From IMG/VR virus record IMGVR_UViG_3300007643_000136, positions 1 to 25,134 of that record: DNA of 25,134 bases; one strand, 5' to 3'. The stretch comes from a virus. Lineage: Duplodnaviria > Caudoviricetes. This document shows positions 1,924 through 22,051 of this stretch, one piece after another. The notes under the pieces are model-generated. The model worked only from the letters and a program-made list of their open reading frames with translations, did not search any database and was not told the origin of the DNA. The translations under genes and the position numbers were made by a program. Positions within the stretch are counted from its first letter, which is position 1. The number at the start of each line of letters is the position of its first letter.

Positions 1924-4071
1924 ATGGCGACCGTCGCCGACAAACCGAAGAGCAGCAAAGCCAAACGCAAACGACCGACCAAAAAGAAGGCGCCGCCCGA
2001 GGCCTCGCCGGTCGAGTACTCGGCCCAGATCGTGGCGGTCGACGAAGATCGCAGCCCAGCCGGCCGGCTGATCGTCCACACTCGACCGGGGAAGGAACTC
2101 TTTAGCTCCAAGTGGGTGATCGCCTTGGCCGCATTTCAAGGCGCCGAGTCGCAATGGACAGAAGACACCGACGACGAGTTATCCCACCGCTCCGCGATGG
2201 AGAACGCCCTCAACGAAGCCTATTCGTGGATCGACGGCAGGCTTGGCGTTTCGACCGATCCGGCGGAGCAGGACGCACTAGGCGAGTTGGCAACCGCCAT
2301 CGACCAGGCCGACGAAGATGAACTCTTTGCGGAACTGCTGGCGAGCAAGCCGGACGATCCGTCGCCGCCACCCGAGCCCAACAATCAGACCAACGGCCAG
2401 GCCAACAACCAACTCGCCTCTTTGAAAATCGAACTACTCGACCAACACCCCGACAACCCCGACCCGAGCGAAGCGGAGCTGGTTGAGCAGATGGCCTGGA
2501 TGCAATCGGGGCAAGATGAGCCGATCACGGTGCGGCCGCGGGGGAAGCGTTACGAAGTACTCGCCGGCAAGCGGCGATCGCTGGCCGCCGGTCGACTCGG
2601 TTGGGAGACGATCGAAGCCCGCGTGCGGACCGACCTGGCGGACGACGCCGCGGCCGTTCGCTACCTGTTCGCCAGCAACGCTCAGCGGCATGAAGACAAC
2701 CCGATGCGTCGGGCCCAGGGGCTGGCCGCGATGATCGCCAGCGGCATGGATCCGCTCGCCGCCGGCCAGGTCTTTGGGATCAGTTCGCGCGGCGGCGTCG
2801 ACAACGCGCTCGGCTTATTGAAGCTACCGCAGGTCTGGCAAGAGCGAGTTGTTTCCGGGGAAATGCCGGAGACTTGTGCGTACGCATTAAAGCCGTACGT
2901 CGATCACGCGCCGCTCATGAAGGCGTTCGATAAAGCGTATCGGGGGCACGGATGGCAGGGCGAGCGCATGCGGTCCAAGGAGTCGGTGCGGGAGGCGTTG
3001 CGATTCATCGTGAAGCAGAACGCGCGGCCGATCGACAAGGGAGTGAAGCACAACTACGGTTACCAGCTCCATCACGATCACCAGCGGTACTTCCGGCTCA
3101 CGCCCGAGTTGGAAGCCAAGCTACAAATCGTCAAGTTGCCGCTGGGAAAGAACGGCAAACAGCAGCAATACGCCCTGAATGTAAAGGCCTACGACAAGCT
3201 GCAAATCCCGCTGATCAAAGACAAGATCGCCCAGCGAAACAGCGGCGGCTCGAAGGGCGCCAAAAAGCAGACCGCCGCCAAGCTGTCGCCCAAGGAGAAG
3301 GCGGCCGAAGAGAAGCGGAAACGGAAAGAGGCCGACAGCAAATTGGCCGATTGGATCAAGCACGAATGGCGGCCGGCGATGCTCCGTTTGCTGGCCAGCC
3401 GCGCGGTGCTGAAACTGTCGTCGGGTGAGCAATGGCGGGCCGACTTCCTGCTTCCGAGGTTGATCGAGTCGATCGGCCGCGACGCGCCGCTGTACCAATT
3501 CGAGTGCGTCGCCGCCGATCACTTCCAGGAAGAGCCGCATCGCAAGTGGAATGAGCCGTCCGATGCGCCGCGACTGATCGAGACGTTCGCCGGCGTCGAC
3601 CTCGACGAAGATCCGATCAGCCAGCTCGAAGAGCGGCGTCGGCGGTACGTGGCCCTGCTGCTCTGGCCGCAAGAGCCCGAGCTCGACGACGACGACAAGC
3701 ATAAGCACATCACGGCCATCGGACCGCAGATCCCCTTCGGCGGCCGGATGCCGCAGCTGTCGATCGCCGCGGTCGATTGGATCGCCAAGTTCCTGGAAGG
3801 CGTCACCGACGAGCGGGTCAACATGAAAGGAGGCTGGGAGTCGGCCGTCCGCCAAGGCCCCGCGAGGGAAATGTTGCAGTTGTTGCTCAACCGCATGAAC
3901 CGGGCGCAGTTATGCGACCTGGCGTCGGAGATCGTCGGCCGCGGCAACCAGGCGCCGGGCGTCAGCTACGTGAAGTGGGTCACCGGATTCAAGAAGAAGA
4001 GCGAAGTGGTGGAGTCGCTGTTGTCGCTGCACAACGTGACGCCGCTGAAGTTGCCGAAGGTTTTGATTTAG
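1924..4071 (+). CDS. Large ParB/Spo0J/Noc-family protein (ParB N-terminal domain, HTH, long C-terminal region)
   Basis: AGGAGG RBS at 1911-1916; HPDNP, EPITVRPRGKRYEVLAGKRRSLAA, SNAQR, HTH region GQVFGISSRGGVDNALGLLKLP. Confidence 0.88.
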   Translation: MATVADKPKSSKAKRKRPTKKKAPPEASPVEYSAQIVAVDEDRSPAGRLIVHTRPGKELFSSKWVIALAAFQGAESQWTEDTDDELSHRSAMENALNEAYSWIDGRLGVSTDPAEQDALGELATAIDQADEDELFAELLASKPDDPSPPPEPNNQTNGQANNQLASLKIELLDQHPDNPDPSEAELVEQMAWMQSGQDEPITVRPRGKRYEVLAGKRRSLAAGRLGWETIEARVRTDLADDAAAVRYLFASNAQRHEDNPMRRAQGLAAMIASGMDPLAAGQVFGISSRGGVDNALGLLKLPQVWQERVVSGEMPETCAYALKPYVDHAPLMKAFDKAYRGHGWQGERMRSKESVREALRFIVKQNARPIDKGVKHNYGYQLHHDHQRYFRLTPELEAKLQIVKLPLGKNGKQQQYALNVKAYDKLQIPLIKDKIAQRNSGGSKGAKKQTAAKLSPKEKAAEEKRKRKEADSKLADWIKHEWRPAMLRLLASRAVLKLSSGEQWRADFLLPRLIESIGRDAPLYQFECVAADHFQEEPHRKWNEPSDAPRLIETFAGVDLDEDPISQLEERRRRYVALLLWPQEPELDDDDKHKHITAIGPQIPFGGRMPQLSIAAVDWIAKFLEGVTDERVNMKGGWESAVRQGPAREMLQLLLNRMNRAQLCDLASEIVGRGNQAPGVSYVKWVTGFKKKSEVVESLLSLHNVTPLKLPKVLI
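2850..2865. promoter_or_regulatory. Palindromic NBS/parS-like site 1, TGTTTCCGGGGAAATG
   Basis: TTTCC-NN-GGAAA core, one of five copies; inside the parB-like gene just after the HTH-coding region. Confidence 0.65.
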
Positions 4072-4097
4072 TTCTCAGCTTCAAACAGGAGAGAGTT

Positions 4098-4340
4098 ATG
4101 GGTAAGCAGACAGGCGGCGAGGCGTTCCCGCGACCGGGCTACGAATCGCCACTAGGCGGTGATCATCACGATTGTCTACCGCAGAACGGCATGTCGCTCC
4201 GCGACTGGCTGGCGGGCCGAGCAATGCAGGGGTTGCTGGCTGGCGGCGAAGCGGCGACTGCGCCGGAAGTAAAAGGCCTGTTGGCGCATCGCGCCTATGA
4301 AATCGCCGATGAAATGCTCCTCGTGCGGAGGGCGCTATGA
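4098..4340 (+). CDS. Conserved small phage protein (GGxAFP...GMSLRDW.A..AMQG...AY.IAD.ML family)
   Basis: AGGAG RBS before ATG 4098; recognisable widespread phage family motif of unknown function. Confidence 0.85.
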   Translation: MGKQTGGEAFPRPGYESPLGGDHHDCLPQNGMSLRDWLAGRAMQGLLAGGEAATAPEVKGLLAHRAYEIADEMLLVRRAL

Positions 4341-5017
4341 GCCAAGTCGACCCCTTGCCTACCGATCCGAACGATCGTTCTTGGCTGACCTTCAACGGCA
4401 GAGAGCGTCGGCAAAGGATCGGCGTATCTTCGAAGTCGCACCAGATGGGAAGCGACAAAAACAGCATCACCTTTCGCAACATGACGGACAAAGAACTGCA
4501 TGCGATGGAGGCGTTCTTGAGCGGCCACAGCTACGTGCGGGTGGTCGACGGCCGCCTACATGCCTACCACGCGTTCGACCCGTTGCCGGAGCCTGAACGC
4601 GACCCCCTGCTTGCGGAGCACTGGCCGGTGGACGGAGAGACCAAACAGTTCGGCGGACTGGGTGATGAAAAAGGTTGGCAATCGCCGGGGATCATCATCA
4701 CCGCTGTCGGCGCTGCGGGCCGGGCCGAGCGGTCGCGAGACCTGCTGCGAGACTGGGGGTTCGCCTGCCTTCGCTCACCTCGCCAAAGCGACGGGACGTA
4801 TTGGGAGCAGTGGGTGCTGCACTACCTCCTAGCCGCCCAAGGCGATTTGAAAGACCACCTGGATCGGTGGAAGGCGGAGCAGCCGAAACTCACCTGGGAT
4901 GCGGATAGTTGGAAAGCCTCGGCCGAAGAGGCGGGGCGGTTCATCGTCAAGTGCGGCGTCTCGTTCGGAAGTCTCGATATCACCGCCCAACGTTGGGCGC
5001 TGGCTAACCCCGATTGA
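4337..5017 (+). CDS. Hypothetical protein, 226 aa
   Basis: ATGA overlap, GGAGG upstream, Trp-rich globular composition. Confidence 0.75.
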   Translation: MSQVDPLPTDPNDRSWLTFNGRERRQRIGVSSKSHQMGSDKNSITFRNMTDKELHAMEAFLSGHSYVRVVDGRLHAYHAFDPLPEPERDPLLAEHWPVDGETKQFGGLGDEKGWQSPGIIITAVGAAGRAERSRDLLRDWGFACLRSPRQSDGTYWEQWVLHYLLAAQGDLKDHLDRWKAEQPKLTWDADSWKASAEEAGRFIVKCGVSFGSLDITAQRWALANPD

Positions 5018-6637: not shown

Positions 6638-7356
6638 GCGTGGTCCCGGAACCGATCTACACGTGTCTCGTCTGCAGCGGTCCGACCTGGGGCCGCTACT
6701 GTTCGGAGCGCTGCCACTGCCAGGCCGAGGATCGAGAGCCCGTGCATACTCGCCCGTTCCCGTGGTCGGCGGAGACGCTGGCCCGCCACGCAGCCGCGCC
6801 GAAGATCTATTGGGACGGAGTGACCGGCCGCGAGCGGAGGGAAGCGGAAGCGGCGGCCGCCAAAGAGGCGGAGGAAGCGGAGTCAGTGGAACCGAGCGAT
6901 CTTTCGCCCGCAACTCGACGACCTGTCGGAGCGAATGAACTGCTGCGGCCGTGCGTCATCTGTCCCCGCTGCATTCGCGTCCACCCGCCGGCGGCCGAGC
7001 AGTGCGACTGCGGCGAGCTGCTCGACGCGCAACCGCTGGTCGAGCCGCCGACCGATCCTACCGGGAAGCAAGACTGCGGCGCTACGCCGCGGGAGGACCC
7101 GACGCCCAGCGTCGATCAGCCTGACGTCATTCGCGTCGACGCGAATGACAACAACTCGGTGAGTTCCGAGGAAAGTTCCCCGGTCGGCTCGGCGGTTCAA
7201 CCAGCGTGCATCGCCTGCGGAGACACCGGCCAAAACAGCCGCGGCGGCCCCTGCCTGCCCTGCGAACGCCACGGGCGGATAGCCAGCCAACCAACGCCGA
7301 AACCTAAGCCCAGCAAACGCGATCGCCATCTGGCCGATCAGCCGTTCTTGTTTTGA
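6634..7356 (+). CDS. Multi-zinc-finger protein with low-complexity linkers, 240 aa
   Basis: TTGA overlap (or GTG 6640); CLVC..CSERC, CPRC..CDCG, CIACGDTG..PCLPC; ends DQPFLF. Confidence 0.7.
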   Translation: MSVVPEPIYTCLVCSGPTWGRYCSERCHCQAEDREPVHTRPFPWSAETLARHAAAPKIYWDGVTGRERREAEAAAAKEAEEAESVEPSDLSPATRRPVGANELLRPCVICPRCIRVHPPAAEQCDCGELLDAQPLVEPPTDPTGKQDCGATPREDPTPSVDQPDVIRVDANDNNSVSSEESSPVGSAVQPACIACGDTGQNSRGGPCLPCERHGRIASQPTPKPKPSKRDRHLADQPFLF

Positions 7357-7584: not shown

Positions 7585-7866
7585 GTGAACTCAAGGCAGT
7601 GTCTTTGCGCCGGGAGCAGTATCGTGGTTTCTTTCGCCGCCCAACAATCGAAGCTGGATCGACTGATCCTCTCTGGCCGCTACTCGCGGCGTGAGATCGC
7701 CCGCTTGTGCGGAGTCTCCACCAAGACGGTGGCGGCCGCCGTGTTGCGATTAAAGCAGGCCGGCGACAACTTCTCTCCCTCCCGCAATCTGCGGCAACCT
7801 CGCCGCTGCGGCGACTGCGGCGCACTCCTCAATCGCTGGCCTTGCGTGGCCTGCGACGCGGCCTAG
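7585..7866 (+). CDS. HTH plus zinc-ribbon DNA-binding protein (start may be GTG 7624)
   Basis: YSRREIARLCGVSTKTV helix-turn-helix; RCGDCG...PCVAC. Confidence 0.75.
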   Translation: MNSRQCLCAGSSIVVSFAAQQSKLDRLILSGRYSRREIARLCGVSTKTVAAAVLRLKQAGDNFSPSRNLRQPRRCGDCGALLNRWPCVACDAA

Positions 7867-8387: not shown

Positions 8388-8594
8388 ATGTCGAGGTGGA
8401 GTTTGGATCATTTGGAAGAAGAGGAGATCGCTTCGCATCCGGATTATCGACCGGCGCGGGCCCAGTCGCCGACCAAAGCCCCGGCCGGGTCGCCGGAAAA
8501 GATTGAGGTGATGCGGGACCGAGTGGCGCGCGGCGAGCAAGCGACGCATCCGCTCGACAATTTGCGCCAAGTCGATCCGGAGCGTTCCGCATGA
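8388..8594 (+). CDS. Small protein of the PTxAPxGSxEKIEV..R...G...HP.D family
   Basis: Motif recalled from planctomycete hypothetical proteins; ATGA overlap with the next gene. Confidence 0.7.
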   Translation: MSRWSLDHLEEEEIASHPDYRPARAQSPTKAPAGSPEKIEVMRDRVARGEQATHPLDNLRQVDPERSA

Positions 8595-8809
8595 TCAGTA
8601 TCGAATTCTGCGGCGGACCGGCGGACGGTCGACGCGACACCACCGCGATCAGTTGCCTGAAGCCGGGTGACTCGGTGAGCGTCGTCGTCGAAACGGCCGC
8701 CGCCCGGCACACGTATCGACTCCCCGGCGTCTGGTGCGGCCAGTCCCGCCTGCGACTGCGACACGCCCAAACGGTCGCCAGCGTTTCCCCGGAAACAGAG
8801 GAGGCGTAG
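8591..8809 (+). CDS. Small phage protein with GGPxDG motif, 72 aa
   Basis: GGAG RBS, ATGA overlap, FCGGPADG. Confidence 0.65.
   Translation: MISIEFCGGPADGRRDTTAISCLKPGDSVSVVVETAAARHTYRLPGVWCGQSRLRLRHAQTVASVSPETEEA
8782..8797. promoter_or_regulatory. Palindromic NBS/parS-like site 2, CGTTTCCCCGGAAACA
   Basis: TTTCC-NN-GGAAA core; abuts the GAGGAGG RBS of ATG 8810. Confidence 0.65.
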
Positions 8810-9549: not shown

Positions 9550-9953
9550 GCGATCGGCAAGCGAACCCGATTCCCGGCCTGCTGCTGCTGGCCTTGCTGG
9601 CCTGGCTGTTGTGGGGCGGATCTTGCGAGAACGCGATTGTCGCGCCGCCCACCCCCGGCCCGCGAGTGGTGGCGATCCTGCGCGAGTCGGGCGACAAGGA
9701 TCCGCAGCTGCACGCCGCTCTGTTGCAGCTGCGGCTCGAAGCGGGCGAGCAGCGCGAAGTGTTCCTGCTCGATCCGGATGACGACGCGGATCCGTTTGTC
9801 GCGGCGATCAAGAGCGGCTTTGAAGGATCGCTCCCCTTGCCGGCGATCGTGATCGGCGTCCGCGTCGGCGATCAATTGCAAGTACTCCACCGCGGCCCCT
9901 GTCCACGCGAACTCGAAGAATTGAAAGCCCTGGTGCAGCAACATGGCGGTTAG
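9546..9953 (+). CDS. Exported or lipoprotein-like protein, 135 aa
   Basis: TTGA overlap, GGGAG upstream; hydrophobic GLLLLALLAWLLWGGSC, Pro linker, alpha/beta domain. Confidence 0.65.
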   Translation: MSDRQANPIPGLLLLALLAWLLWGGSCENAIVAPPTPGPRVVAILRESGDKDPQLHAALLQLRLEAGEQREVFLLDPDDDADPFVAAIKSGFEGSLPLPAIVIGVRVGDQLQVLHRGPCPRELEELKALVQQHGG

Positions 9954-10719
9954 CAACTCCCCCTCTCCTCTGTACGACGCCCCCGGCCGCGGCGACTGCC
10001 TGCCTCGCGTCGATGCGTGCGGCGATCTGTTCGCGGTCTTTGAAGACGCCGTGCCGGTGATCCCGCGCGGCGAGTGGCGAGGTTTGTTTGAGTCGCTGCC
10101 CGATCTGTCTCGCCTGGTGAAGAAGATCAAGAATCAGGGCCAGGAAGGATCGTGCGCCAGCAACGCCACCGTGCAGGCGTACGAGATCGTTTTCAACCTG
10201 CAGTTCGGCGTGCGCCGCTGGATCGAATTCAGCGCCATGAGTCTGTATAAGCGTGTCGGCCGCACCGCCCAGTCAGGCAGCGTGGTCGGCGACAATTTGA
10301 AAGAGATCCGCGACCGCGGCATTCTGCCGGTCGACAACCCCGAGAACCGCGCGCGATTTGACTGCGTTCACCCGGCCACCGGCTTTGGTCGCCGCCTGCC
10401 CAGCAATTGGGAGGAAACGGCCGCACAGTTCCGCGCCGTCGAGTGGTTCGACATCAGCAGCTTCGACGGCTTCATGACGGCCCTCTTGCTGGGTTACCCG
10501 GTGGTCTATGGCCGCGCGGGACACGCCATCTGCGGCGTACGCGGCGTCGAGCGCAGCGGAGCCTGGCACGTGAAGTACGCCAATAGCTGGGGCCCATGGG
10601 GCGAGAACGGCTACGGCTACGACAGTGAACGATTCATCAGCGGAGCGATCCGCAGTTACGGCGCCTTTGCCATCCGCAGCGTCGCCGTCCATTCTGATTT
10701 TGTGTCCCCCCTTACCTAG
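9943..10719 (+). CDS. Papain-like cysteine peptidase (family C1), 258 aa
   Basis: NQGQEGSC (Q65, C71), GHAI (H194), ANSWGPWGENGYG (N214). Confidence 0.92.
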   Translation: MAVSNSPSPLYDAPGRGDCLPRVDACGDLFAVFEDAVPVIPRGEWRGLFESLPDLSRLVKKIKNQGQEGSCASNATVQAYEIVFNLQFGVRRWIEFSAMSLYKRVGRTAQSGSVVGDNLKEIRDRGILPVDNPENRARFDCVHPATGFGRRLPSNWEETAAQFRAVEWFDISSFDGFMTALLLGYPVVYGRAGHAICGVRGVERSGAWHVKYANSWGPWGENGYGYDSERFISGAIRSYGAFAIRSVAVHSDFVSPLT

Positions 10720-11897: not shown

Positions 11898-13654
11898 CGA
11901 TCGACAAGACAACGCTCCTCTGGATTCGCAACAAAGCCGACGAACTCGCCGCCGCTGACGGACACCGCTTTGACCTTGAGCCCGCGGCCTGGGCGGTTTG
12001 GTGGATTGAGTATTATTGCCGACTGTACGAAGGCGAGCTGGCGGGCGAGCCGTTGTATCTTCGCGGTTGCCACGAATGCGACAGCGATGCTGATCGCGAG
12101 GAGCTGCTGGACTGGGACGAAGGCGGGCGCGAGCAAACGCTTGATCGCCTCGATCGACACGCCGCATGCTACGCCGCCGGCCACACTCTCGACTGGCAAC
12201 TCGACGTAACCGCCCGCATGTTCGGCTGGCTTCGACACTCCGAAAAGTGGCGCCGTGAAATCCGCCGCTTTCGCCAGGCTTCGGTTTGGGTCGCGAAGAA
12301 AAACAAGAAGTCGCCGACGCTCGCCGCCTGGGGATTGTACCTGCTGTGCGGCGACGGAGAGCCAGGCCAAAAGATCTATCTCGGCGCGAAGGACGGGAAG
12401 CAGGCTAAATCGATCGCAGGCAAGCACGCCGTCGAAATGGTGCAGTCGTCGCCGATGCTGTCGTCGGTTTGCACTTGCAACAAGATGGCGGCGGAGATCA
12501 CCCACGAACCCAGCCGCTCGGTGATGATCCCGCTGAGCAGCAGCAACTCCGCCAGCCAAAAATCGAAAGAAGGGCTTAACGGCAGTTGCTGCATTGACGA
12601 AACCCACGTGGTTGACGACGAGTTTATCGGCCGCATCAGCCGCGCGGGAATCTCTCGCAGCGAGCCCTTGCAGATTGAGACGTCGACGGCCGGCGACGAT
12701 CCGGACGGCTACGGGTTCCGCCGCTTTCAGTACGCACAATCGGTAGCGGCGGGTGAGACGCTCAACCACCAGTTGCTGCCGGCGATCTACGCCGCGCCGC
12801 AAGACGCGACCGACGAAGACATCATGGCGGACCCGCTGCACTTCGCCCGCCAGGCCAACCCGGCGCTCGGTCACACGGTCGACCCCGAGGAACTGCTGAA
12901 CGACGCAACGCAAAGCAAAGCCAACTCGGTGGAGTGGAATCGCTTCAAAAAATACCGGCTCAACATCTGGACCGGCTCGCTTACCAAATGGCTCCGCCCG
13001 TCCGACTGGACCGCCTGCTACGAACCGTTCACCGCGGAGCAGTTCCGCGGGCAACTCTGTTACGCGGGGCTCGATCTCAGTAAGACTCGCGACCTCACCG
13101 CGCTGACGCTGATCTTCCCCGGCGACGACGACATCTGGCGACAGATTAATTACTACTGGATGCCGCGAGAGGCGGCGATCGAACTGGCGGAGATTGTCCC
13201 CTATCTCGACTGGGAGGAACAAGGCGCGGTCGAACTGACCGATGGCCCAGTGGTTGATTACGCCTTCGTGAAGTCGCGGATTCTGGAAGTGGAAGAGACG
13301 TACGACTTGCAAGTACTCGCCTACGATCCGTGGAACGCGGAGACCCTCACGCAGGAGTTGGAGACCGAAGGAGTGCATCGGGTGGCGATGCAACAAACGA
13401 TAGCCAACCTGGCCGAGCCAACGGCCGAATACGAACGGCGAATCCTCAACGGCACGCTACGGCACAACGGCAACCCGCTGACCACTTGGCAGGCCGGCCA
13501 CGTGCAAGTGAAGTGCGACCACAACAAAAATATGCGGCCGGTCAAGAGGCAACACGGAGACCACCGCACAATCGACGGCATCGTCGCCGGCGTGATCGCC
13601 GCGGGGCAGTTACTAGTTGATCCTCCCGCCACAGGCATAGGTTTATTCGCATGA
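11894..13654 (+). CDS. terL: Terminase large subunit
   Basis: Walker A-like VAKKNKKS, Walker B CCIDETH, STAG, ANPALG, GLDLSKTRDLTA, YDPWNA, HNGNP, IDGIVA. Confidence 0.96.
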   Translation: MTIDKTTLLWIRNKADELAAADGHRFDLEPAAWAVWWIEYYCRLYEGELAGEPLYLRGCHECDSDADREELLDWDEGGREQTLDRLDRHAACYAAGHTLDWQLDVTARMFGWLRHSEKWRREIRRFRQASVWVAKKNKKSPTLAAWGLYLLCGDGEPGQKIYLGAKDGKQAKSIAGKHAVEMVQSSPMLSSVCTCNKMAAEITHEPSRSVMIPLSSSNSASQKSKEGLNGSCCIDETHVVDDEFIGRISRAGISRSEPLQIETSTAGDDPDGYGFRRFQYAQSVAAGETLNHQLLPAIYAAPQDATDEDIMADPLHFARQANPALGHTVDPEELLNDATQSKANSVEWNRFKKYRLNIWTGSLTKWLRPSDWTACYEPFTAEQFRGQLCYAGLDLSKTRDLTALTLIFPGDDDIWRQINYYWMPREAAIELAEIVPYLDWEEQGAVELTDGPVVDYAFVKSRILEVEETYDLQVLAYDPWNAETLTQELETEGVHRVAMQQTIANLAEPTAEYERRILNGTLRHNGNPLTTWQAGHVQVKCDHNKNMRPVKRQHGDHRTIDGIVAGVIAAGQLLVDPPATGIGLFA

Positions 13655-15324
13655 TTCGATGGCTAAGTTCCGCGGCAAAATCTATCGGTTCGTTTCTCGG
13701 CTCTGGCGCGAGTGGCAGCTACAACCCGGCCCAGTGGCTGATCGACTGGGTGTGGGGCGGACCCAAGAGCGCCGCCGGCGTGCGGGTCAACCTAAAGTCG
13801 ATGCTTTCGATCGCCGCAGTGAAGCAGGCCGTGACGATCATCAGCGGCGACGTTGCCAAGCTGCCGCTGCACGTTTTTCGCAATCTGCCGGAAGGCGGAA
13901 GGGATCGCACTAAAGACCACCCGGCCTGGTATCTGCTCCGCCGCAAGCCGTCGACCGACCTAACCGCCTACCCGTTTAAGCAGACGATCACCGCCCACGC
14001 CCTGCTGCACGGCAACGGCTACGCCTTCATTGCTCGCGATCGCCGTAACCGGCCCGTCGACTTGGTCCCGATGTGTCCGCGGGCCACCTACCCGGTGCGG
14101 ATGGACCGCCGCTTATGGTACATCACCCAAGTTGACGGCGAAGACGTGCGACTGTCGCCCTCCGAGGTGTTTCACCTGCGGGGCCTCGGCAGTGACGGCG
14201 TGATGGGTTACGCGGTGATCGACCTGGCCAAGGAGTCGATGGGGCTCACGCTGGCCGCACAGAAGTTCGGCTCCAAATTCTTCGGCAACGACAACACGCC
14301 CGGCGGCCTGCTGGAGGCGCCGGGCAAGCTGACCGAACAGAAGGCCGATGAGTTGCGGCGGCGGTGGGACAAGATGCATTCAGCCGACAACGCGCACCGC
14401 TTGGCGATCGTCGAAGCGGGCTACAAGTTCACGTCGATTTCCGTACCGCCCGAACAGGCGCAGTTTTTAGAGACTCGCAAATTCCAGCGCACCGAAGTCG
14501 CGAGCTGGTTCAATATCCCGTCGCACAAATTGGGAGACGACTCCAAAACTTCGCGCAACAGTTTGGCCGAAGAGAATCAGTCCTATCTGGAGTCGACACT
14601 GGAACACTGGCTCTGTTCGTGGGAGGAGGAGGCTTGGGATAAGCTGCTCACCGAAAAAGAGAAGCGGAGCGACGAAGTCTTTATCGAGTTCCAGCGATTG
14701 GCGCTACTCCGCGCGGACGCCGGCACCCGCAGCAACTTCTATCACAACGCGCTCTTGGACGGCTGGATGAATCGCGACGAAGTGCGCGATCGGGAAAACC
14801 TCAATCCGATTCCGGACGGCCAGGGAAAACGCTACTACACGCCGCTCAATATGGACGCAGGCGACGACACGCTTGTCGAAGATCCGCCGGCCGAACCGGG
14901 ACCCGATCCCCGCGCCAAGCGGACGCTCGCCAAGTTGGTCGCGGAGACCTGCGGACGGATGCTCCGCTGGGAAGTCGACGCCGCCGAACGCTCGGCCAAA
15001 AAACCGAGCGGCTACGTGGCTGCAATCGACGACTTCTACGGCCAGCATGCCGATCGCCTGGCCGCCAGTCTGGCGACCGTTGTGGAGTGCCTGGCCGCGG
15101 TTGCCGGCAGCGACGTTTCCCCGGAAACCGTCTCCCGCCAAGTCGCCGCCGCGCACTGCGCGGAAGCCAAGCAACGCTTGCTGGCCGCCGCCGACCTGGC
15201 GACCGACGCCGAAACATTGCGCACCCAAGTCGCCGGCGTGCGCGATTGGATCGCCACACAACCGGCGGCGATTGCCGACCACTTGATCACTCAATTTTTT
15301 GGAGACGACCACGATGGCGACTAA
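13651..15324 (+). CDS. HK97-family portal protein with C-terminal extension
   Basis: VAKLPL, LLHGNGYA, EVFHLR, AQFLETRKF...VASWFNIP, GWMNRDEVR..ENLNP, PLNM. Confidence 0.95.
   Translation: MIRWLSSAAKSIGSFLGSGASGSYNPAQWLIDWVWGGPKSAAGVRVNLKSMLSIAAVKQAVTIISGDVAKLPLHVFRNLPEGGRDRTKDHPAWYLLRRKPSTDLTAYPFKQTITAHALLHGNGYAFIARDRRNRPVDLVPMCPRATYPVRMDRRLWYITQVDGEDVRLSPSEVFHLRGLGSDGVMGYAVIDLAKESMGLTLAAQKFGSKFFGNDNTPGGLLEAPGKLTEQKADELRRRWDKMHSADNAHRLAIVEAGYKFTSISVPPEQAQFLETRKFQRTEVASWFNIPSHKLGDDSKTSRNSLAEENQSYLESTLEHWLCSWEEEAWDKLLTEKEKRSDEVFIEFQRLALLRADAGTRSNFYHNALLDGWMNRDEVRDRENLNPIPDGQGKRYYTPLNMDAGDDTLVEDPPAEPGPDPRAKRTLAKLVAETCGRMLRWEVDAAERSAKKPSGYVAAIDDFYGQHADRLAASLATVVECLAAVAGSDVSPETVSRQVAAAHCAEAKQRLLAAADLATDAETLRTQVAGVRDWIATQPAAIADHLITQFFGDDHDGD
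15114..15129. promoter_or_regulatory. Palindromic NBS/parS-like site 3, CGTTTCCCCGGAAACC
   Basis: TTTCC-NN-GGAAA core; 15/16 identical to site 2; inside the portal extension. Confidence 0.6.
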
Positions 15325-15997
15325 GCAGACAAACCGGATCAAAGCCCTCGGCGACAACCGCGCGGAGATTTGGATCTACGAAGAGATCAGCGACTTCTGG
15401 GGCAAGGGGGCGGTCGAGCTGATTGCCGAACTCTCCGCGCTGGGATTGGTCGATGAGATCGTCGTGCGGATCAATAGTCCCGGCGGCGACGTGTTTGAAG
15501 CGGCGGCGATGTACAACGTGTTGAAGCAACACCCGGCGAAGGTGACCGTGGAGATCGACGGCATGGCCGTTTCAGCCGCCTCGGTGCTGGCGATGGTCGG
15601 CGACACAATCCGCATGGCCGACAACGCCATGATGATGATTCACGATCCTTGGGGCGGCGCGGTCGGCAACGCCAGCGAACATCGACAGTACGCCGACCTG
15701 TTGGAGAAGGTGGGCGAAACACTAGTGGCGACCTACGCCAATCGCACCGGCCGGCCGGCCGACGAGATCCGCCCGCTGATGGCGGCCGAAACCTGGATGG
15801 ACGCCGAGGAAGCGCTCGCCGGCCAGTTTATCGACGAGATCGTCGCCGGCAAGCAGGTGGCCGCCCGCTTCGATCCGGATCGCTTCAACAACTGCCCGCA
15901 ACAATTCGCCGAGCGGGCCAAGACGGCTCCCGCGCCGACGCTGCACGAGTACCGCAACCGGCTCGACAAACTGACGCTCGCCGCAACCAACAGATAG
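15314..15997 (+). CDS. ClpP-like (S14) prohead maturation protease
   Basis: GGAG RBS; INSPGGDVFE, IDGMAVSAAS (Ser), MMIHDPW (His), ETWMDAEEA. Confidence 0.93.
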   Translation: MATKQTNRIKALGDNRAEIWIYEEISDFWGKGAVELIAELSALGLVDEIVVRINSPGGDVFEAAAMYNVLKQHPAKVTVEIDGMAVSAASVLAMVGDTIRMADNAMMMIHDPWGGAVGNASEHRQYADLLEKVGETLVATYANRTGRPADEIRPLMAAETWMDAEEALAGQFIDEIVAGKQVAARFDPDRFNNCPQQFAERAKTAPAPTLHEYRNRLDKLTLAATNR

Positions 15998-16006
15998 AAA
16001 CCGAGC

Positions 16007-16034
16007 TTGACCGCCGAACGCTCGGCGCTAACAT
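16007..16034 (+). promoter_or_regulatory. Putative promoter TTGACC-N16-TAACAT upstream of the capsid gene, with a palindrome in the spacer
   Basis: Near-consensus -35 and -10; CGCCGA-N4-TCGGCG at 16012-16027. Confidence 0.55.
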
Positions 16035-16214
16035 TTCACTTGCAACAAAATCGAAACGCCGCCTCTCGGCCGCCGGGTGATCCCGAGCCGCCGAGCGGAC
16101 GGAACGATTGAGCACGCAACCTGCTGATGCGGTGGCGGCTGATCCGCGATTTGAATTTTCATTCACTTCGCCGGCGGCCCGCCGTAGCTTGGCCTCCGGC
16201 ATCTGGAGGCATCT

Positions 16215-17723
16215 ATGACCTGCTTGGTCCAAGTCAAAAGTCTGAAAAAGCTGGCAATCCACGCCGCGATCGCGGCCCTCTTCTCCAGTGGCCGCGCCGG
16301 CCCGATCTTGGCCGAGGGCCTCGACTGGGTCAAAGAGAAGGAGCTCACCGAGCAGGCGGCCGAACTGCGGGCCGAGGCCGAGACGCTCATTAAGGGCGCC
16401 GACGAAGCCAAGCGATCGCTCAACGAAGAAGAGCGCAAGCGATTCGACGAGATCGAAGCCGAATGCAAGCGGATCAACGATCTGTTGGCCGACGCCAACA
16501 AGCTGGCCAAGTGGCGACCGAGCAACTCAGTCGATCCCAAAGACACTCAGCCGAAGGGACGCATCGGCCGCGATCGCCAGCCAGGCGACGACGACGACGA
16601 GGACGAAGAACTTGACGATCAGCCCCGCGCGGCGTCGATTCGGATCCCCGCGCAGGCCCGCTTCCGGCACACCCGTTTAACCGCCTACAAGGGCGAGCAT
16701 GCCGAGAAGGCCGCCTACATCGCTGGTCAGTTTATTTTGGCGACGCTGGGACGGCACGAACCCTCAGCGAACTGGTGTCGCTCGCACGGGATTGATACGC
16801 AATTCAGAGGCGCCATGAGCGGCAACAGTAACAGCCTTGGCGGCTACCTGGTTCCGATCGAAATGGAACAGTCGATCATCGATCTGCGGCAACTGTACGG
16901 CGTGTTTCGCCGCGAAGCCCGTGTGGAGCCAATGGCCAGCGACACGAAGACGGTGCCCGTTAGGTCGACGGGTCTGACCGCGTACTTCTCCGGCGACAAC
17001 GTCGCGCTCACCGAAAGCGAAAAGACCTGGTCGCAGGTGTCGCTGATCGCCAAGAAGGTTCACGCGATGACCCGCTACTCTTCGGAGTTGTCGGAGGATT
17101 CGGTCATCGACTTGGCGAACGACCTGACCCAAGAGATCGCCCACGCCTTCTCCCTGAAGGAGGATCAGTGCGGATTCTTGGGCGACGGAACCAGCACCTA
17201 TGGCGGCATCGTTGGCTTACTCAGCGCATTGCTCGCCGGCTCGACCGTCGATGCGGGCAGCGGCAACACCGGCTTTGAAACGCTCGACCTGACCGACTTT
17301 GAGAAGTGCATCGGGAAACTGCCGGAGTTCCCCGGCATCGACCCCAAGTGGTACATCCACAAAGCAGGCTGGGCCGCTTCGATGGCTCGACTGCAGGACG
17401 CCGCCGGCGGCAACACGAACGTGAGTTTGGCGGAAGGCCCGCGACAGATGATGTTTCTGGGCTATCCGGTCGTGTTCAGTCAGGTGCTTAACAGCACGCT
17501 CGGCGCGGACGCCAGCGCTGTTAAATGCTACTTCGGCGATCTTGATATGTCCGTACGCATGGGCAACCGCCGGGGGATCAGCGTGATGCTGTCCGACCAG
17601 CGATACTTTGAGCAAGATCAAATCGCGATCAAGGGAACCGAGCGTTTCGACATCAACGTTCATTCGACCGGATCGGCCACCGAGCCGGGCGCCGTTGTCG
17701 CCCTCAAAACCGCTTCCGGCTAA
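16215..17723 (+). CDS. Major capsid protein, HK97 fold, with N-terminal coiled-coil scaffold (delta) domain
   Basis: GGAGG RBS; coiled-coil N-terminus; GGYLVP, SSELSEDS, FLGDGT, LGYPV, FGDL, ERFD. Confidence 0.95.
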   Translation: MTCLVQVKSLKKLAIHAAIAALFSSGRAGPILAEGLDWVKEKELTEQAAELRAEAETLIKGADEAKRSLNEEERKRFDEIEAECKRINDLLADANKLAKWRPSNSVDPKDTQPKGRIGRDRQPGDDDDEDEELDDQPRAASIRIPAQARFRHTRLTAYKGEHAEKAAYIAGQFILATLGRHEPSANWCRSHGIDTQFRGAMSGNSNSLGGYLVPIEMEQSIIDLRQLYGVFRREARVEPMASDTKTVPVRSTGLTAYFSGDNVALTESEKTWSQVSLIAKKVHAMTRYSSELSEDSVIDLANDLTQEIAHAFSLKEDQCGFLGDGTSTYGGIVGLLSALLAGSTVDAGSGNTGFETLDLTDFEKCIGKLPEFPGIDPKWYIHKAGWAASMARLQDAAGGNTNVSLAEGPRQMMFLGYPVVFSQVLNSTLGADASAVKCYFGDLDMSVRMGNRRGISVMLSDQRYFEQDQIAIKGTERFDINVHSTGSATEPGAVVALKTASG

Positions 17724-17760
17724 CGGTCGTTCGCCGCTTCCGCCGTCTGGCACTCCCTTT

Positions 17761-17776
17761 CATTTCCTCGGAAACA
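17761..17776. promoter_or_regulatory. Palindromic NBS/parS-like site 4, CATTTCCTCGGAAACA
   Basis: Intergenic, 7 nt upstream of ATG 17784. Confidence 0.65.
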
Positions 17777-17783
17777 TAACGAT

Positions 17784-18239
17784 ATGATCCCCTCGCAAAA
17801 CATGAAGGTCATCAACGTCACGCCTCCGGCGGCGATCGTTGACGACGGGTCGTATGCGACCACCGAAGTCGACACGCTCGGCTTTGACTACGCCACGTTT
17901 ATCATCAGCATGGGTGCGACCGACATCGCCATGGCCGCGCTGAAGGTGCAGGAGTCGGACGTTAGCGCCACCGGCCTGGCGGATATCGACGGCGCGGACT
18001 TCGCCGGCGATACCGACGTCGACGGCGCGGCGGCGACCGTCCCCTCCGCGACCGACGACAACAAGGTCTTCATCGTGGAACTCGACCTGCGCAATCGCAA
18101 GCGTTACCTCGACCTGGTCGCCACCGCCGGCGACGGTACGGCCGGATCGTTCATGAGCTGCGTCTGCCTGCTCAGTCGCAGCAAGAGCGGTCTGGAGACG
18201 GCGACCGAGCGGGGCGCGGACATCGTCCTGCGAGTCTAA
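17784..18239 (+). CDS. Putative head decoration/cement protein, 151 aa
   Basis: Immediately after the capsid gene; beta-rich; DTLGFD, KVQESD, KRYLDLV motifs. Confidence 0.7.
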   Translation: MIPSQNMKVINVTPPAAIVDDGSYATTEVDTLGFDYATFIISMGATDIAMAALKVQESDVSATGLADIDGADFAGDTDVDGAAATVPSATDDNKVFIVELDLRNRKRYLDLVATAGDGTAGSFMSCVCLLSRSKSGLETATERGADIVLRV

Positions 18240-18280
18240 GCCGCGGCCGGTTTAGTTGCTCTGTTGACGGAGGAGTTGTC

Positions 18281-18457
18281 GTGGTCGAAGTACGTGTCGT
18301 GAAAGCCTGGAAGCACTACCAGCCCGGCCGCCTACTACAGGTGACCGGGGGCGTGGCCAACGTGCTGTTGCGGCGCGGCATTGTCGAGTTGCTGACCGAG
18401 AGACCCACGTTCGCCAAGCGGACCAAGAATAAGCGAAAGGGGAGCCGTGCGACTTAA
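18281..18457 (+). CDS. 58-aa protein resembling the ribosomal protein L9 N-terminal domain (not in the ORF track)
   Basis: GGAGGAG RBS, GTG start; MVEVRVVKAWKHYQPGRLLQVTGGVANVLLRRGIVE plus basic tail; overlaps the next gene. Confidence 0.7.
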   Translation: MVEVRVVKAWKHYQPGRLLQVTGGVANVLLRRGIVELLTERPTFAKRTKNKRKGSRAT

Positions 18458-19028
18458 GCAAACGGCCGCCCCCGCCGCCGAACCGATCACCGCCGACGAA
18501 GCCAAGGACCACGTGCTTACCACGGAGACCGATCAAGACGATCGCATCACCGCTCTTATTCGAGCGGCGCGGGAGTACGTGGAGCGAATCTCCGGATGGC
18601 AACTGGTGACGGCGACCTGGCGCCAGTCATTTGATGCGTTCCCCGTCAGTGGATCGATCTTGTATGTCCCCCGGCCGCCGCTGCAATCGGTCAGCCAGAT
18701 CACGTACTACGACACGCTTGGCGTTCAGCAAACGCTCGACTCCGCCCTGTATCAGGTCGACGTGGAGGATGAGCCGGGCCGGATCGCCGAGGCCCCGGCC
18801 GCCAGTTGGCCAACGACGGAGAGCAATCGACTGAACGCGGTGCAGATTACCTTTGTCGCCGGCTACGGCGCGGCGGCCGCCGTGCCCGAGGATTGGAAGC
18901 AAGCGATCTACCTGTTGGTCGGCCACTGGTTTGAAAACCGGGAAGCGGTCGGCCAGGTGGGGCCCGAGATTCAGTTGGCGGTGGAGTCGCTGCTAGAGCC
19001 GTTCCGTTTTCATGGAGTCGCTCAGTAA
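18447..19028 (+). CDS. Head-tail connector (HK97 gp6 / phiE125 gp8-like)
   Basis: EPIT.DEAK.H, LI.AAR..VE, PLQSV, F.AGYG, VPEDWKQAIYLLVGHWFENRE. Confidence 0.92.
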   Translation: MRLKQTAAPAAEPITADEAKDHVLTTETDQDDRITALIRAAREYVERISGWQLVTATWRQSFDAFPVSGSILYVPRPPLQSVSQITYYDTLGVQQTLDSALYQVDVEDEPGRIAEAPAASWPTTESNRLNAVQITFVAGYGAAAAVPEDWKQAIYLLVGHWFENREAVGQVGPEIQLAVESLLEPFRFHGVAQ

Positions 19029-19357
19029 TGCGGACCAGCGGCCAGATCGGCAAGCTAAGGCACAAGATCACGATTGAGCAACCGACGCTCGCGCAGAACA
19101 CGGGCGGCCAGCCGACTGCCGCCTGGTCGACCTACAAAACGGCGTGGGCTCGCATCGAGTCGGGCGGCGGGGGAGAGAGCAAGCACTACGCCGAGCAGCT
19201 CGGCCTGGGCCAGGTGCTGATTACGACCAGATACGCCAGCGGCGTGACCACCGACATGCGGATCACCCACAACGGCCGCACACTCAATATCGACCACGTC
19301 GACGACCCGGACGGGCGCCGGCGACGGCTGGTCATTATCGCCAAAGAGATCACCTAA
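19028..19357 (+). CDS. Head closure protein (SPP1 gp16-like)
   Basis: GKLRHKITIEQ, WARIE, TRY..GVTTDMRI. Confidence 0.9.
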   Translation: MRTSGQIGKLRHKITIEQPTLAQNTGGQPTAAWSTYKTAWARIESGGGGESKHYAEQLGLGQVLITTRYASGVTTDMRITHNGRTLNIDHVDDPDGRRRRLVIIAKEIT

Positions 19358-19361
19358 CCCA

Positions 19362-19535
19362 GTGAAAGCCGCCGTGGACCTCGACGCCAAAGAACTCGCC
19401 ACGATGATCACGCTCCGCGTGCGGATCCGCCGCATGCGACGGTGGCGAGTGCGTTTGTGGATCGGTTGTCGCCTGATTCGCCTGGCGTCCTGGGTGATGT
19501 GGGTGCCGGTCGAGATCGAGCAGGTGGAGCCATGA
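19362..19535 (+). CDS. 57-aa Arg/Trp-rich amphipathic protein (not in the ORF track)
   Basis: GTG 4 nt after the previous stop; ends in an ATGA overlap with the next gene; MKAAVDLDAKELATMITLRVRIRRMRRWRVRLWIGCRLIRLASWVMWVPVEIEQVEP. Confidence 0.65.
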   Translation: MKAAVDLDAKELATMITLRVRIRRMRRWRVRLWIGCRLIRLASWVMWVPVEIEQVEP

Positions 19536-19972
19536 GCGGCGCTTACCTCACCGGCGACAAAGGTCTCGACCTGTTCTTCGCCACCGCCGCCGCCAAGCTC
19601 CAAAAGAAGATCGGCGCCAAGGCGGCCCGCGAAACGGCCAAAGGCGTGGCCGACAAAATTATCGAACTCGCGCCGCAAGACGAAGGTGAGTACGTCACCT
19701 CGATTAAGGTCCGCGCGCTGAAGCGATCGCGAAGGAACAAGTACATCGCCGGCGCCCGCGTGGTGACCGACGAGAAGCGATTGCGCGAGATCGCTGAAAA
19801 TGAAGGCCAGACGTTCAATCCGCACTGGCTGGAATTCGGCACGGCCAAAGCTCCAGCTCAGTCGCACTTCCGCGCGGGCGCCGACGTCAGCGAGGCGTTC
19901 TTCCGTTCGGACTTTCGCGCTCGCATTCGGCCGCTAGTGCTGGAGCTGGCGCGGGAGGCGAGAACGCCATGA
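19532..19972 (+). CDS. HK97 gp10-like tail component
   Basis: GGAG RBS; APQDEGEYVTSI, HWLEFGTAKAPAQ. Confidence 0.85.
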   Translation: MSGAYLTGDKGLDLFFATAAAKLQKKIGAKAARETAKGVADKIIELAPQDEGEYVTSIKVRALKRSRRNKYIAGARVVTDEKRLREIAENEGQTFNPHWLEFGTAKAPAQSHFRAGADVSEAFFRSDFRARIRPLVLELAREARTP

Positions 19973-20391
19973 GCGGCATCGGCGAAGCGGTCTACGTCTA
20001 CCTCCAAACAGTGAGCGAGGTGACAGATCTTGTCAGCACGCGCGGCTATCCAGGGAACCTTCCCAAGAAGCCGACGCTGCCGGCATTCACGTACGCGGTG
20101 ATTAGCCAGGCGTCGGACGCGTCCTTGCAGGGTTCGACCGGCTACGTTGCTTCGCGAGTGCAGATCGACGCCTACGCGGCGGAGGATGGCGACGCGGCCG
20201 AACTGGCTACGCAAATTCGCCTGGCGATGCTCGCGCAGCCGCCGCCCGCAATGAACGGCGTCGAGGTCGACGTGGTGACCAAGGATGGCGGCTTTAGCCG
20301 CAGCGAGCAACCCAAAGACGGGTCGGACGCTTGGCGCCACCGACACAGCCAGGATTTTCGCATCGGCCACGAAGAAACCATTCCTTCCTAA
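19969..20391 (+). CDS. Tail terminator/completion protein (DUF3168, gp17-like)
   Basis: RGYP...P..PTLP..TY, RVQIDAYA, gene position. Confidence 0.85.
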   Translation: MSGIGEAVYVYLQTVSEVTDLVSTRGYPGNLPKKPTLPAFTYAVISQASDASLQGSTGYVASRVQIDAYAAEDGDAAELATQIRLAMLAQPPPAMNGVEVDVVTKDGGFSRSEQPKDGSDAWRHRHSQDFRIGHEETIPS

Positions 20392-20406
20392 GCAAAGGCA
20401 ACAAGC

Positions 20407-20847
20407 ATGACAGGCTCACTCGGCCGCAGCGGACACGGCGCCTCGATCGTTTTTGGAACGACCGGCTGGACCGGCATCATTCACAAAATCACCGGCCTCC
20501 ATCGGACCCGTGGGAAGATCGAGATTACCGCGCTCAATTTGGCGGTCAACTCGGAAAAGCAGTACATCCCCGAGGATCTGATCGACTGCGACGAGATCAC
20601 GATCGACTACGAATTCAACCCATCCGCCAGCACGCAAACACCGCTCACCTCCGCGCCCGAAACGATCACCATCACCGCCCCCATGCGATCGGGCGAGTCG
20701 ACGGCGGCGACGCTCGCGGGCTCCGGCTTCGCGACCGACGACAAGCACGGCGATTACGAACGCGGATCCTCCAATCCCATGATGGGCCAGCTCAAATTTC
20801 AGTTCGACGGACTCACCGGCCCCGTGCTAACCGCCGGCAGCGCGTAA
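20407..20847 (+). CDS. Major tail tube protein
   Basis: Position; IEITAL...KQYIPEDLIDCDEITIDYEFNP; beta-rich, 146 aa. Confidence 0.8.
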   Translation: MTGSLGRSGHGASIVFGTTGWTGIIHKITGLHRTRGKIEITALNLAVNSEKQYIPEDLIDCDEITIDYEFNPSASTQTPLTSAPETITITAPMRSGESTAATLAGSGFATDDKHGDYERGSSNPMMGQLKFQFDGLTGPVLTAGSA

Positions 20848-20904
20848 CCATAAGTCGCCTTTCGACACGAAACGAGAACCCCCACACAAACGACGGAGCC
20901 ACAC

Positions 20905-21237
20905 ATGCCCGAGAACGAACCGATGAAGTTGGAACTGCGAAACCATCCCGCGCAGGCTCAACACCCTATCACCAAAAAACCGCTGTTCGACGAACACCGC
21001 AAGCCCGTTCCACTGCTCAAGCACGAACGGGCTATCTACCTTGACGGCGATCATGTTGGCTACTGCACGGCCAAGCCAGGCTTTCCCGTCAACCTGATCG
21101 TGAACTTCCCCGATTCCATGCGCGACATCATCGTGAAGTTCGTGGAGGATGAAATCGGCGCCGTGAGCCACAACTCGATGGTCCCGCCGCCCCCGGAAGA
21201 TCGCGACCCAGAAGACGACGACGACGACGACGAATAG
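20905..21237 (+). CDS. Hypothetical protein with acidic C-terminal tail, 110 aa
   Basis: GGAG RBS; ends PPPPEDRDPEDDDDDDE. Confidence 0.75.
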   Translation: MPENEPMKLELRNHPAQAQHPITKKPLFDEHRKPVPLLKHERAIYLDGDHVGYCTAKPGFPVNLIVNFPDSMRDIIVKFVEDEIGAVSHNSMVPPPPEDRDPEDDDDDDE

Positions 21238-21258
21238 TCGCCTCTCGCTCAGTAGCGG

Positions 21259-21305
21259 AACGCAGAAACCAGATCAACGCAGAAACCAGACGGAGAAAAC
21301 CAAGA
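21259..21305 (+). repeat. Direct repeat AACGCAGAAACCAGA x2 plus a degenerate third copy
   Basis: Exact copies at 21259-21273 and 21276-21290; CGGAGAAAACCAAGA at 21291-21305. Confidence 0.8.
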
Positions 21306-21730
21306 TGGACGCAACACCCAAAGCAAAACCACAGCCCAAGACCTTCGCCGGCCGCGAGCGATTCTTGCGGGGCTTCAAGCGTCGCTACCAGGAAGTGACC
21401 CTTCCGGACGGCGAGATTGTCCGCATTCAAAACCTCAGCGAAGCCGAGAAGTCCCGCGTCGATACGGCCTCGATCGATTACAAGAAGAGCAAGATCGTTC
21501 GCAAGGCGGCCCAACTGAGCCGCGCCCGTCTGTTGGTCGCCTGCATCGTCGACGCCGCCGGGGCCCGATTGTTTGGCGACGATGATACGGAGACGTTGGC
21601 CACCGAACTCGACTCGCGGGATTCGCAGGTGATCTACGCGGCGATTTTGGAGTGGGTGGGAGGCGACGACGAAGACTTTGAAGAGACGGTAAAAAACTCC
21701 GTCGACGACCCCGCCGGCGGTACGCCTTAG
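21305..21730 (+). CDS. Tail assembly chaperone (gpG equivalent)
   Basis: Upstream of the tape measure gene; ARLLVACIVD..G.RLF; ends ETVKNS at a slippery site. Confidence 0.88.
   Translation: MDATPKAKPQPKTFAGRERFLRGFKRRYQEVTLPDGEIVRIQNLSEAEKSRVDTASIDYKKSKIVRKAAQLSRARLLVACIVDAAGARLFGDDDTETLATELDSRDSQVIYAAILEWVGGDDEDFEETVKNSVDDPAGGTP
21691..21697 (+). promoter_or_regulatory. Programmed -1 ribosomal frameshift heptamer A AAA AAC
   Basis: X XXY YYZ pattern in the correct phase (GTA AAA AAC); the -1 frame is open to 22035. Confidence 0.88.
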
Positions 21731-22035
21731 CGCTTGCCGACCGGCGTGGGTCGTTTGCCGTCGACGACCTGTTGGCGCGGATGACGCCGGACGAATTCAA
21801 CGAACGGTTCGCCGCGTGGACGATCGAGCAAGAGGATCGGCGGACGGAACTCTGCACGCTTATCGCCACAATTTTCAACGCGGCCAAAACGATCGTGAAG
21901 GGGGAGACGCTGGAGGAAGGCGAGTGGCTGACCCCCGAGCAACTCCTGCGGACGCCCGACGAAGAAGCGGAAACCGACAACCACTCGATCGACGCCTTCT
22001 TCGCCGCCGCCGCGGCCAAGTGGGGACCGAAGTAA
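21697..22035 (+). CDS. gpT portion of the G-T frameshift chaperone (fusion spans 21305-22035)
   Basis: -1 frame reads LRRRPRRRYALALADRRGSFAVDDLLARMTPDEFNERFAAW. Confidence 0.85.
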   Translation, partial: LRRRPRRRYALALADRRGSFAVDDLLARMTPDEFNERFAAWTIEQEDRRTELCTLIATIFNAAKTIVKGETLEEGEWLTPEQLLRTPDEEAETDNHSIDAFFAAAAAKWGPK

Positions 22036-22051
22036 CATTTCCTGGGAAACG
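22036..22051. promoter_or_regulatory. Palindromic NBS/parS-like site 5, CATTTCCTGGGAAACG
   Basis: Fills most of the 24-nt gap before the tape measure ATG; 14/16 identical to site 4. Confidence 0.65.

Follow-up and report, generated by a model that had tools for sequence, protein, structure and literature searches.

What reads five copies of one palindrome spread over a phage genome, and what purpose do they serve? The question is raised by virus record IMGVR_UViG_3300007643_000136, the whole of which, 25,134 bp and ~36% complete, was analysed here and is referred to as the window. By its Pfam matches it is the middle part of a tailed phage with HK97-like head genes, and it encodes an orphan ParB-family protein of 715 residues (positions 1924–4071, plus strand, with a Shine-Dalgarno sequence preceding the ATG at 1924). 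An original prediction, made from the letters of the window, held that this ParB-like protein loads at the palindromes throughout the genome. Our comparisons of the window with its relatives indicate that the palindromes are probably where the phage's own orphan ParB clamp loads, from which it would coat the phage genome and control transcription at a distance. The two parts of this proposal differ in strength. That ParB binds the palindromes is very likely, judging from the sequence comparisons, and that the coat, once bound, would control phage transcription at a distance is about an even call, argued by analogy with known clamps.

Exact cores TTTCCNNGGAAA (TTTCC-NN-GGAAA) were found at positions 2852, 8784, 15116, 17763 and 22038, the gaps between successive sites being 5932, 6332, 2647 and 4275 bp. 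The expected number of copies was 0.04 in 100 dinucleotide shuffles, none of which reached five, and 0.01–0.02 under Markov models of orders 1–5. A scan of spacer lengths from 0 to 15 showed enrichment only at spacer 2 (the five copies), with one copy at spacer 12. These counts bore out the prediction that the five palindromes, the same 16-mers, stand far above chance. A weak sixth copy that had been proposed at 7161 fared differently: the one-mismatch match at 7161–7176 (core at 7163) is the sole extra one in the window, 0.64 such matches were expected by chance, it lacks the flanking purine, and it was not counted as a site.

The five sites, to which no strand was assigned, occupy varied positions. 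Site 1 (2850–2865) lies inside parB itself, in the codons for V-S-G-E-M just after the helix-turn-helix (HTH), and the probability that these codons spell the palindrome, given codon usage, is 0.0012. Site 2 (8782–8797) is formed by the last codons (V-S-P-E-T) of a 72-residue open reading frame (ORF) at 8591–8809, ahead of the lysis-region genes, and directly precedes a Shine-Dalgarno sequence and the ATG at 8810, the start of a 69-codon frame not called as a gene. Site 3 (15114–15129) is in a C-terminal extension of the portal gene (also V-S-P-E-T), and the portal gene end of a related prophage, contig C98, likewise carries a site. Sites 4 (17761–17776, between the major capsid gene and ORF 17784) and 5 (22036–22051, immediately after the stop of ORF 21772–22035 and before the tape-measure gene) are intergenic, with their centres 15–16 bp upstream of the ATGs at 17784 and 22060. 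In the contexts first described, the location of the copy at 2852 inside parB had gone unremarked.

Several analyses of the window protein indicated a ParB-type clamp. ParB_N, the CTP (cytidine triphosphate)-binding fold, was assigned to residues 164–244 (Pfam PF02195, E 3e-6, above the cut-off), and the PHROG match was ParB-like (E 1e-16). The HTH lies near residues 258–340; HTH_ParB matched the window protein weakly (E 0.007) and its relatives strongly (1e-16 and 3e-20). Profile matches to the Noc/ParB fold plus HTH reached E 1e-37 to 1e-36, and over ~210 residues the AlphaFold model of the window protein matched Noc, ParB and KorB (E 1e-8 to 4e-7). The model as a whole had a mean predicted local distance difference test (pLDDT) score of 68 and a predicted template modelling (TM) score of 0.38, with an unstructured N-terminus (pLDDT <50). 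The GxxR and NxxR motifs are conserved (G215, R218 and N252 in all 74 aligned relatives, R255 in 73 of them), a pattern that fits CTP binding. The positions of the catalytic glutamates E78 and E111 of Bacillus subtilis are taken by K216 and S251 in the window protein, and glutamate is kept at the first in 49 and at the second in six of the 74 relatives. Loss of these glutamates in B. subtilis blocks CTP hydrolysis and widens spreading (PMC8494293). We would predict slow CTP hydrolysis by the window ParB and long-lived clamps. The ~350 C-terminal residues form domains without assigned identity: residues 350–715 had no ESM Atlas match at or above 0.9 and no confident match overall, and in Foldseek the PDB matches covered the N-terminal ParB part only, with long viral ParB-like proteins at low TM-score. 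The parB frame is open upstream (784–4071), and the database protein has 828 residues from the ATG at 1585; a longer ParB isoform or a fused upstream gene (1585–1923) is possible.

The association of the palindromes with this protein was examined in records collected, ParB-first and capsid-first, without use of the motif (records are given here under our own labels). The ParB route yielded 632 representatives at E <= 1e-10, with loci fetched from viral, metagenome and genome collections; by the capsid route 45 capsid relatives were fetched and ParB was searched for in 20 of their records. A profile match at E <= 1e-50 defined family ParB, and the main set comprised the 15 records of at least 15 kb that carry it, two of which (G443 and L133) are near-identical. 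All 15 contain a repeated palindrome in 2–11 copies, eight with the same motif as the window and seven with a variant. TTTCC-NN-GGAAA was found nine times in G444, eight in G445, six in C98, five each in G442, G443 and G446, four in L133 and twice in L138. The variants were TTTCG-NN-CGAAA (six copies in G439), ATTTC-N4-GAAAT (eight in G440, ten in G460), ATTNCGCGCGNAAT (11 in G194), TGTCC-NN-GGACA (seven in G441, three in G458) and a TATYAC-type near-palindrome (five in G447). Among six shorter records at E <= 1e-50, contig C131 of G041 had two variant sites, L132 and L136 one each and the rest none; the fragment L139 had one. A profile match was obtained in 102 genomes of the phylum, of which the two strongest new ones (G041 and G194) were examined, the rest being weaker and mostly shorter frames.

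A scan that started from the motif brought up 30 contigs. In 24 of them the fetched locus had just one site, and three of the other six (G007, G008 and G009) were fetched whole. G009 has six TTTCC sites and a ParB 44% identical, and G007 has seven TTTCC sites and a ParB (E 4e-18) whose C-terminus is cut by the contig end. When the proteins of 19 records were clustered, the ParB cluster, which took in a few ParB-methylase genes and whose size is not independent of record selection, covered 18 (the exception being contig C29 of genome G001, a cut contig); the next cluster covered 12, and three different head modules were represented. The sole protein common to all compared motif-and-ParB records was ParB. 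Together, these comparisons support the view that the motif type changes when ParB changes and that the sites travel with the ParB family. The order of events was not read from the protein tree, a quick version with 8 of 19 forks open.

The sites are also confined to the phage. Contig C98 belongs to a 6.6-Mb metagenome-assembled genome (MAG) of Planctomycetaceae, G001, and six of the nine core sites of this MAG, together with all six of its fuller-consensus sites, lie on C98 between the two copies (positions 1 and 37,773) of a 55-bp direct repeat, which we read as attL and attR; the contig carries an integrase-like gene. In G194, a 6.76-Mb genome in one contig, 11 of 12 variant sites, within 3,221,728–3,263,296, fall in one 46-kb prophage, where they are enclosed by 48-bp att repeats whose start lies in a tRNA-Phe gene. 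Each of the 32 other genomes in G001's family, of 4–8 Mb, holds ~0–5 scattered copies, among which one pair of sites is separated by 3.7 kb and another by 22 kb. Three core sites were found in 390,625 bp of capsid-relative loci for which no family parB is known, many of these loci being fragments and one (G451) having terminal repeats. Both comparisons, which had been suggested as refuting tests with the original prediction, left it standing: the motif is not equally frequent in host DNA, and it is near-absent from relatives lacking parB.

The anatomy of the sites indicated that they are maintained as DNA and distributed over the phage. The consensus of 65 TTTCC-type sites is (C/T)(G/A)TTTCC(C/G)(C/G)GGAAA(C/T)(G/A). 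Gaps were more even than random in nine of the 13 records with at least five sites (Fisher combined p 1e-9), with a median of 4,505 bp over 78 gaps and one gap below 1 kb. By a simple codon-usage gene caller, with which start positions and intergenic counts on related contigs are approximate, 46 of 94 sites fall between genes and 48 in coding DNA, which makes up 85% of the total; 29 of the 94 are within 60 bp of a called start codon and 65 are farther away. The intergenic sites lie mostly between co-oriented genes (37, with five between divergent and four between convergent genes), a distribution that fits coverage better than promoter operators. Of the sites fully inside genes, 39 of 45 are read in the same frame, in which they encode V-S-P-E-T, I-S-R-E-M and similar peptides, and this shared frame indicates that the proteins were recoded to hold the sites. 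Peptides compatible with the site are spelled as the site in 30 of 43 cases in ten TTTCC-type records, versus 0 of 6 in four records without ParB.

This recoding extends to parB itself. In 15 records parB contains an exact copy, which occupies one of two peptide positions: after the HTH in seven (the window, C98, G009, G439, G440, G041 and L138) and in the CTP box ([ILV]SGET) in eight (G442–G446, L133, L136 and L139). G441 and G194 have one-mismatch copies in the parB CTP box. We rejected chance coding of the in-parB site, which codon usage makes 0.08–2.5% likely per gene (12 genes computed). Because the post-HTH peptide is encoded without the site where the CTP box carries it, it is the DNA site, and not the peptide, that is kept.

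Based on these observations and on the behaviour of the ParB family, we propose that a ParB dimer would read each palindrome with its HTH, close on CTP and slide several kilobases outward. Silencing by P1 ParB reaches genes as far as 11 kb from parS (PMC13768133), and at that reach neighbouring spreading zones would be expected to meet and cover the phage DNA end to end. With both catalytic glutamates absent from the window protein, the clamps are predicted to be long-lived. The parB gene sits within a run of early genes that share its orientation. Immediately ahead of it is an HTH_36 initiator-like gene in G440, G445 and G446, and in C98 a 350-residue gene in a position similar to that of the initiator-like gene. 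In lambdoid phages the corresponding early region is expressed on induction or infection. By its gene position, ParB would be made from the early operon after induction or infection, and not in the quiet lysogen. The coat may then influence distant phage promoters or genes in the manner of KorB and BisD, either by repression or by activation of transcription; this is the least certain step. We offer, more tentatively and with somewhat less than even confidence, a fuller picture of a motorless whole-genome ParB coat in integrating planctomycete phages, with even sites kept by recoding (including that in the ParB CTP box) and long-lived clamps from attL to attR after induction, which might time the late genes or shield the DNA, the motif variants being self-recognition groups.

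A number of observations weigh against this proposal. KorB hydrolyses CTP with alanine at the first glutamate position (PMC11790492), which leaves a hydrolysis-poor window ParB a prediction. The specificity residues of Noc (Q173, K179, K184 and R201) are not present as a set in the alignment; the usual ParB/Noc specificity positions differ from Noc's (PMC7383237), and inspection of the HTH alignment by eye gave no clean residue code for the motif variants. The G447 motif stems from a looser, after-the-fact search, and no site is present in three short ParB loci (L134, 2.9 kb; L135, 8.8 kb; L137, 10 kb). Sites also occur apart from the family gene. G008, which is 87% complete, has three (6917, 11894 and 23648) and no detected family ParB; prophage contig C29 of G001 has three and no parB on the contig, which begins inside the prophage; and G041 has five RTTTCCNNGGAAAY (TTTCC-type) sites on contigs C29, C62, C69, C105 and C114 (control 0), away from its family parB. 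In G446 the 10.4-kb parB arm holds all five sites, and the 27 kb of late genes next to it are free of them. The 27-kb region has its own integrase-like and excisionase-like genes, and we read it as probably a second prophage. Lastly, the present observations do not separate a role in transcription from a structural role.

That last point bears on the rival that shares most with our proposal, in which ParB binds the same sites and forms a structural coat (bridging, condensing, positioning, shielding, Noc-like occlusion, self-marking or exclusion of host enzymes) with little effect on transcription. The even spacing suits such a coat, as do the 48 of 94 sites in coding DNA, the 65 more than 60 bp from a called start, the early-operon position of parB and the ~350 residues of unassigned C-terminal domains. 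The 29 sites within 60 bp of a start codon speak against it. Noc has an N-terminal membrane-binding helix, whereas the N-terminus of the phage protein is modelled at low confidence as unstructured with no sign of a Noc-type helix, although no dedicated amphipathic-helix test was made. On balance we regard a purely structural coat as possible and rather unlikely.

The original prediction had also raised partition of a plasmid-like prophage, and a ParB acting at dispersed centromeres to partition an excised or plasmid-like phage genome, in the style of SopB of N15 and with host ParA or SMC, would make sense of a ParB-CTPase fold beside parS-like 16-bp palindromes, as N15 uses four IR centromere sites (PMC7205306). 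However, the search for a parA elsewhere in the element was negative: PF13614 (ParA) matched none of 12 virus records and nothing within the G194 and C98 prophages, the window itself being only ~36% complete. Integrase matches were present in seven of the 12 virus records, including all three that are at least 90% complete, and att repeats bound the C98 and G194 prophages. In addition, the ParA-binding motif described in PMC12704722 is absent from the window protein and from 14 of 14 motif-linked proteins, and present in three of 74 family proteins. We consider plasmid-style partition very unlikely because no ParA was found and integrases are present. Of the genome-wide loading first proposed, the co-occurrence of the sites with the ParB family, their confinement to phage and their variation with ParB stood, and the plasmid-like partition did not.

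About as improbable, in our view, is that the sites are operators or stoperator-like roadblocks of another phage repressor, or are bound by a host protein (host ParB, a LexA-like or other regulator). In favour of this reading, mycobacteriophage repressors act through numerous stoperators across the genome (PMC9283540), intergenic DNA holds 46 of 94 sites with 15% of the DNA non-coding, and there are the three sites of G008, where no family ParB was found. However, no other protein family is common to all records, the motif varies with ParB and is rewritten inside parB itself, and two different motifs are present on two prophages of one host genome (C98 and C29 of G001). Host parS, with host ParB as the reader, had been named as an alternative at the outset and was dropped: the motif is scarce and scattered in host genomes, the ~0–5 copies in each of the 32 other genomes of G001's family being unclustered, and the sites are confined to prophages.

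Of the known systems, the proposed clamp most resembles two. KorB of RK2 is a ParB-family CTP clamp with many palindromic OB sites dispersed over a whole mobile element (PMC11790492, PMC13768133), its twelve sites over ~60 kb (about one per 5 kb) having a density similar to that of the phage sites (PMC13768133), and the window model matches KorB structure 8QA9 at E 4e-7. Unlike the phage protein, KorB is paired with a ParA, IncC, and serves in plasmid partition (PMC11790492, PMC13768133), whereas the phage element integrates and no ParA was found. No clamp-locking partner like KorA or TrbA was identified in the phages, where KorA and TrbA were not searched for by profile, and the phage ParB is longer (715 residues), with unassigned C-terminal domains. 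BisD of ICEclc, likewise an orphan ParB, carries an additional C-terminal domain and belongs to an integrating element that has its bisS sites inside genes; BisD hydrolyses CTP slowly, spreads far and is made on element activation (PMC12409273), as the phage ParB would be. It differs in having two sites 2 kb apart and sliding ~50 kb (PMC12409273), whereas the phage sites are repeated genome-wide. No BisC partner was identified in the phages, with no profile search for BisC, and the PRTRC ParB model TIGR03734 scored far below its cut-off (E 3e-5, 22.7 bits versus 278.6).

The remaining systems share less. Noc and its NBS sites, and chromosomal ParB with parS, have the same fold and HTH (PMC7383237, PMC8494293), and the phage TTTCC-NN-GGAAA core is that of the Noc site as quoted with the original prediction. 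The phage protein differs from them in lacking the Noc specificity set (PMC7383237), in scoring far below the Noc and ParB model cut-offs (45 bits versus 315 for the Noc model TIGR04285), in the replacement of both catalytic glutamates in the window protein, and in being phage-encoded with sites only on phage. N15, a temperate phage, also encodes a ParB-type protein with several centromere sites (SopAB with IR1–4), but it is a linear plasmid prophage with SopA (PMC7205306), whereas the present phages integrate and no ParA was found in them. Mycobacteriophage stoperators are many, spread across a temperate phage genome and often at gene junctions; they are asymmetric and read by an immunity repressor (PMC9283540), whereas the phage sites are palindromes linked to an early-operon ParB clamp. 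The arrangement thus appears to work like KorB-OB and BisD-bisS and to fall outside ParABS, Noc and PRTRC ParB. In the literature that we searched, most subscription papers being beyond reach, no paper described an integrating phage in which an orphan ParB has evenly spaced sites bounded by att ends.

As for the remainder of the window, the HK97-like late genes (small and large terminase, portal, ClpP protease, capsid, head-tail, tail and tape measure, by Pfam) run from 11460 to 23949 on the plus strand and carry sites 3–5. Ahead of them a small HTH protein (7585–7866, plus strand) has weak matches to HTH and sigma-70 region 4 and a homolog in prophage C98 (tblastn 46%); it is a candidate ParB partner only. 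C98 (ParB 35% identity) was the sole genome-collection match of the first alignment. Since this planctomycete MAG contig shares 12 proteins with the window in conserved order, the window probably has a planctomycete host. There was no relative among cultured GenBank phages. A GNAT acetyltransferase gene at 3–467 (plus strand) has homologs in five other related phage records. In the lysis region, after a holin-like gene, a papain-like C1 peptidase (9943–10719, plus strand, E 1e-4) occupies the place where an endolysin would be expected.

Other features were noted in the related records. A CsrA homolog is present in the early region of ten of the 19 clustered records (3656–3847 in C98). Genes for tRNA-Met adjoin the integrase genes in G439, G444 and G446, and in G439 and G446 two divergent integrase-like genes surround one tRNA-Met, which suggests a shared insertion hotspot there. 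C29 (L122, L123) is a second HK97-like prophage in the MAG of C98, with perfect ATTTCGCGCGAAAT at 3379, 13400 and 26897. Two full-consensus sites 3.7 kb apart on contig C10 of the host-family genome G487 (6613 and 10287) possibly mark another prophage of this kind. G008, G010, G021 and G031 have 1–3 ATTTCC-NN-GGAAAT sites each, and in them family ParB was not found or a shorter ParB (310–330 residues) was present; a separate system may use the same site. G002, G003 and G004 were rejected as family members, having no such motif and a distant ParB (E 3e-16 in G002, 2e-26 in G004), as was G454, with a distant 555-residue ParB (E 1e-21) and a different repeat, GTAC-N4-GTAC, in 11 copies mostly clustered within 22.6–33.2 kb (L209, L210). 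G462 (L223, L224) has seven GCTGGCCAGC copies and no family ParB. G009 (L063–L065) has a second palindrome, TCGGT-N7-ACCGA, whose ten copies are possibly a repressor operator family.

Prophages often carry orphan ParB proteins, for the most part without an assigned function (PMC12704722). One such family now gains a predicted target of 14–16 bp, together with natural variants of both protein and site and a single-contig host genome with an intact prophage (G194), which make binding, spreading and function directly testable. If the proposal is correct, the protein and site variants would provide orthogonal ParB-site pairs for DNA labelling, and long-range clamp regulation of the KorB/BisD type would extend to integrating phages.

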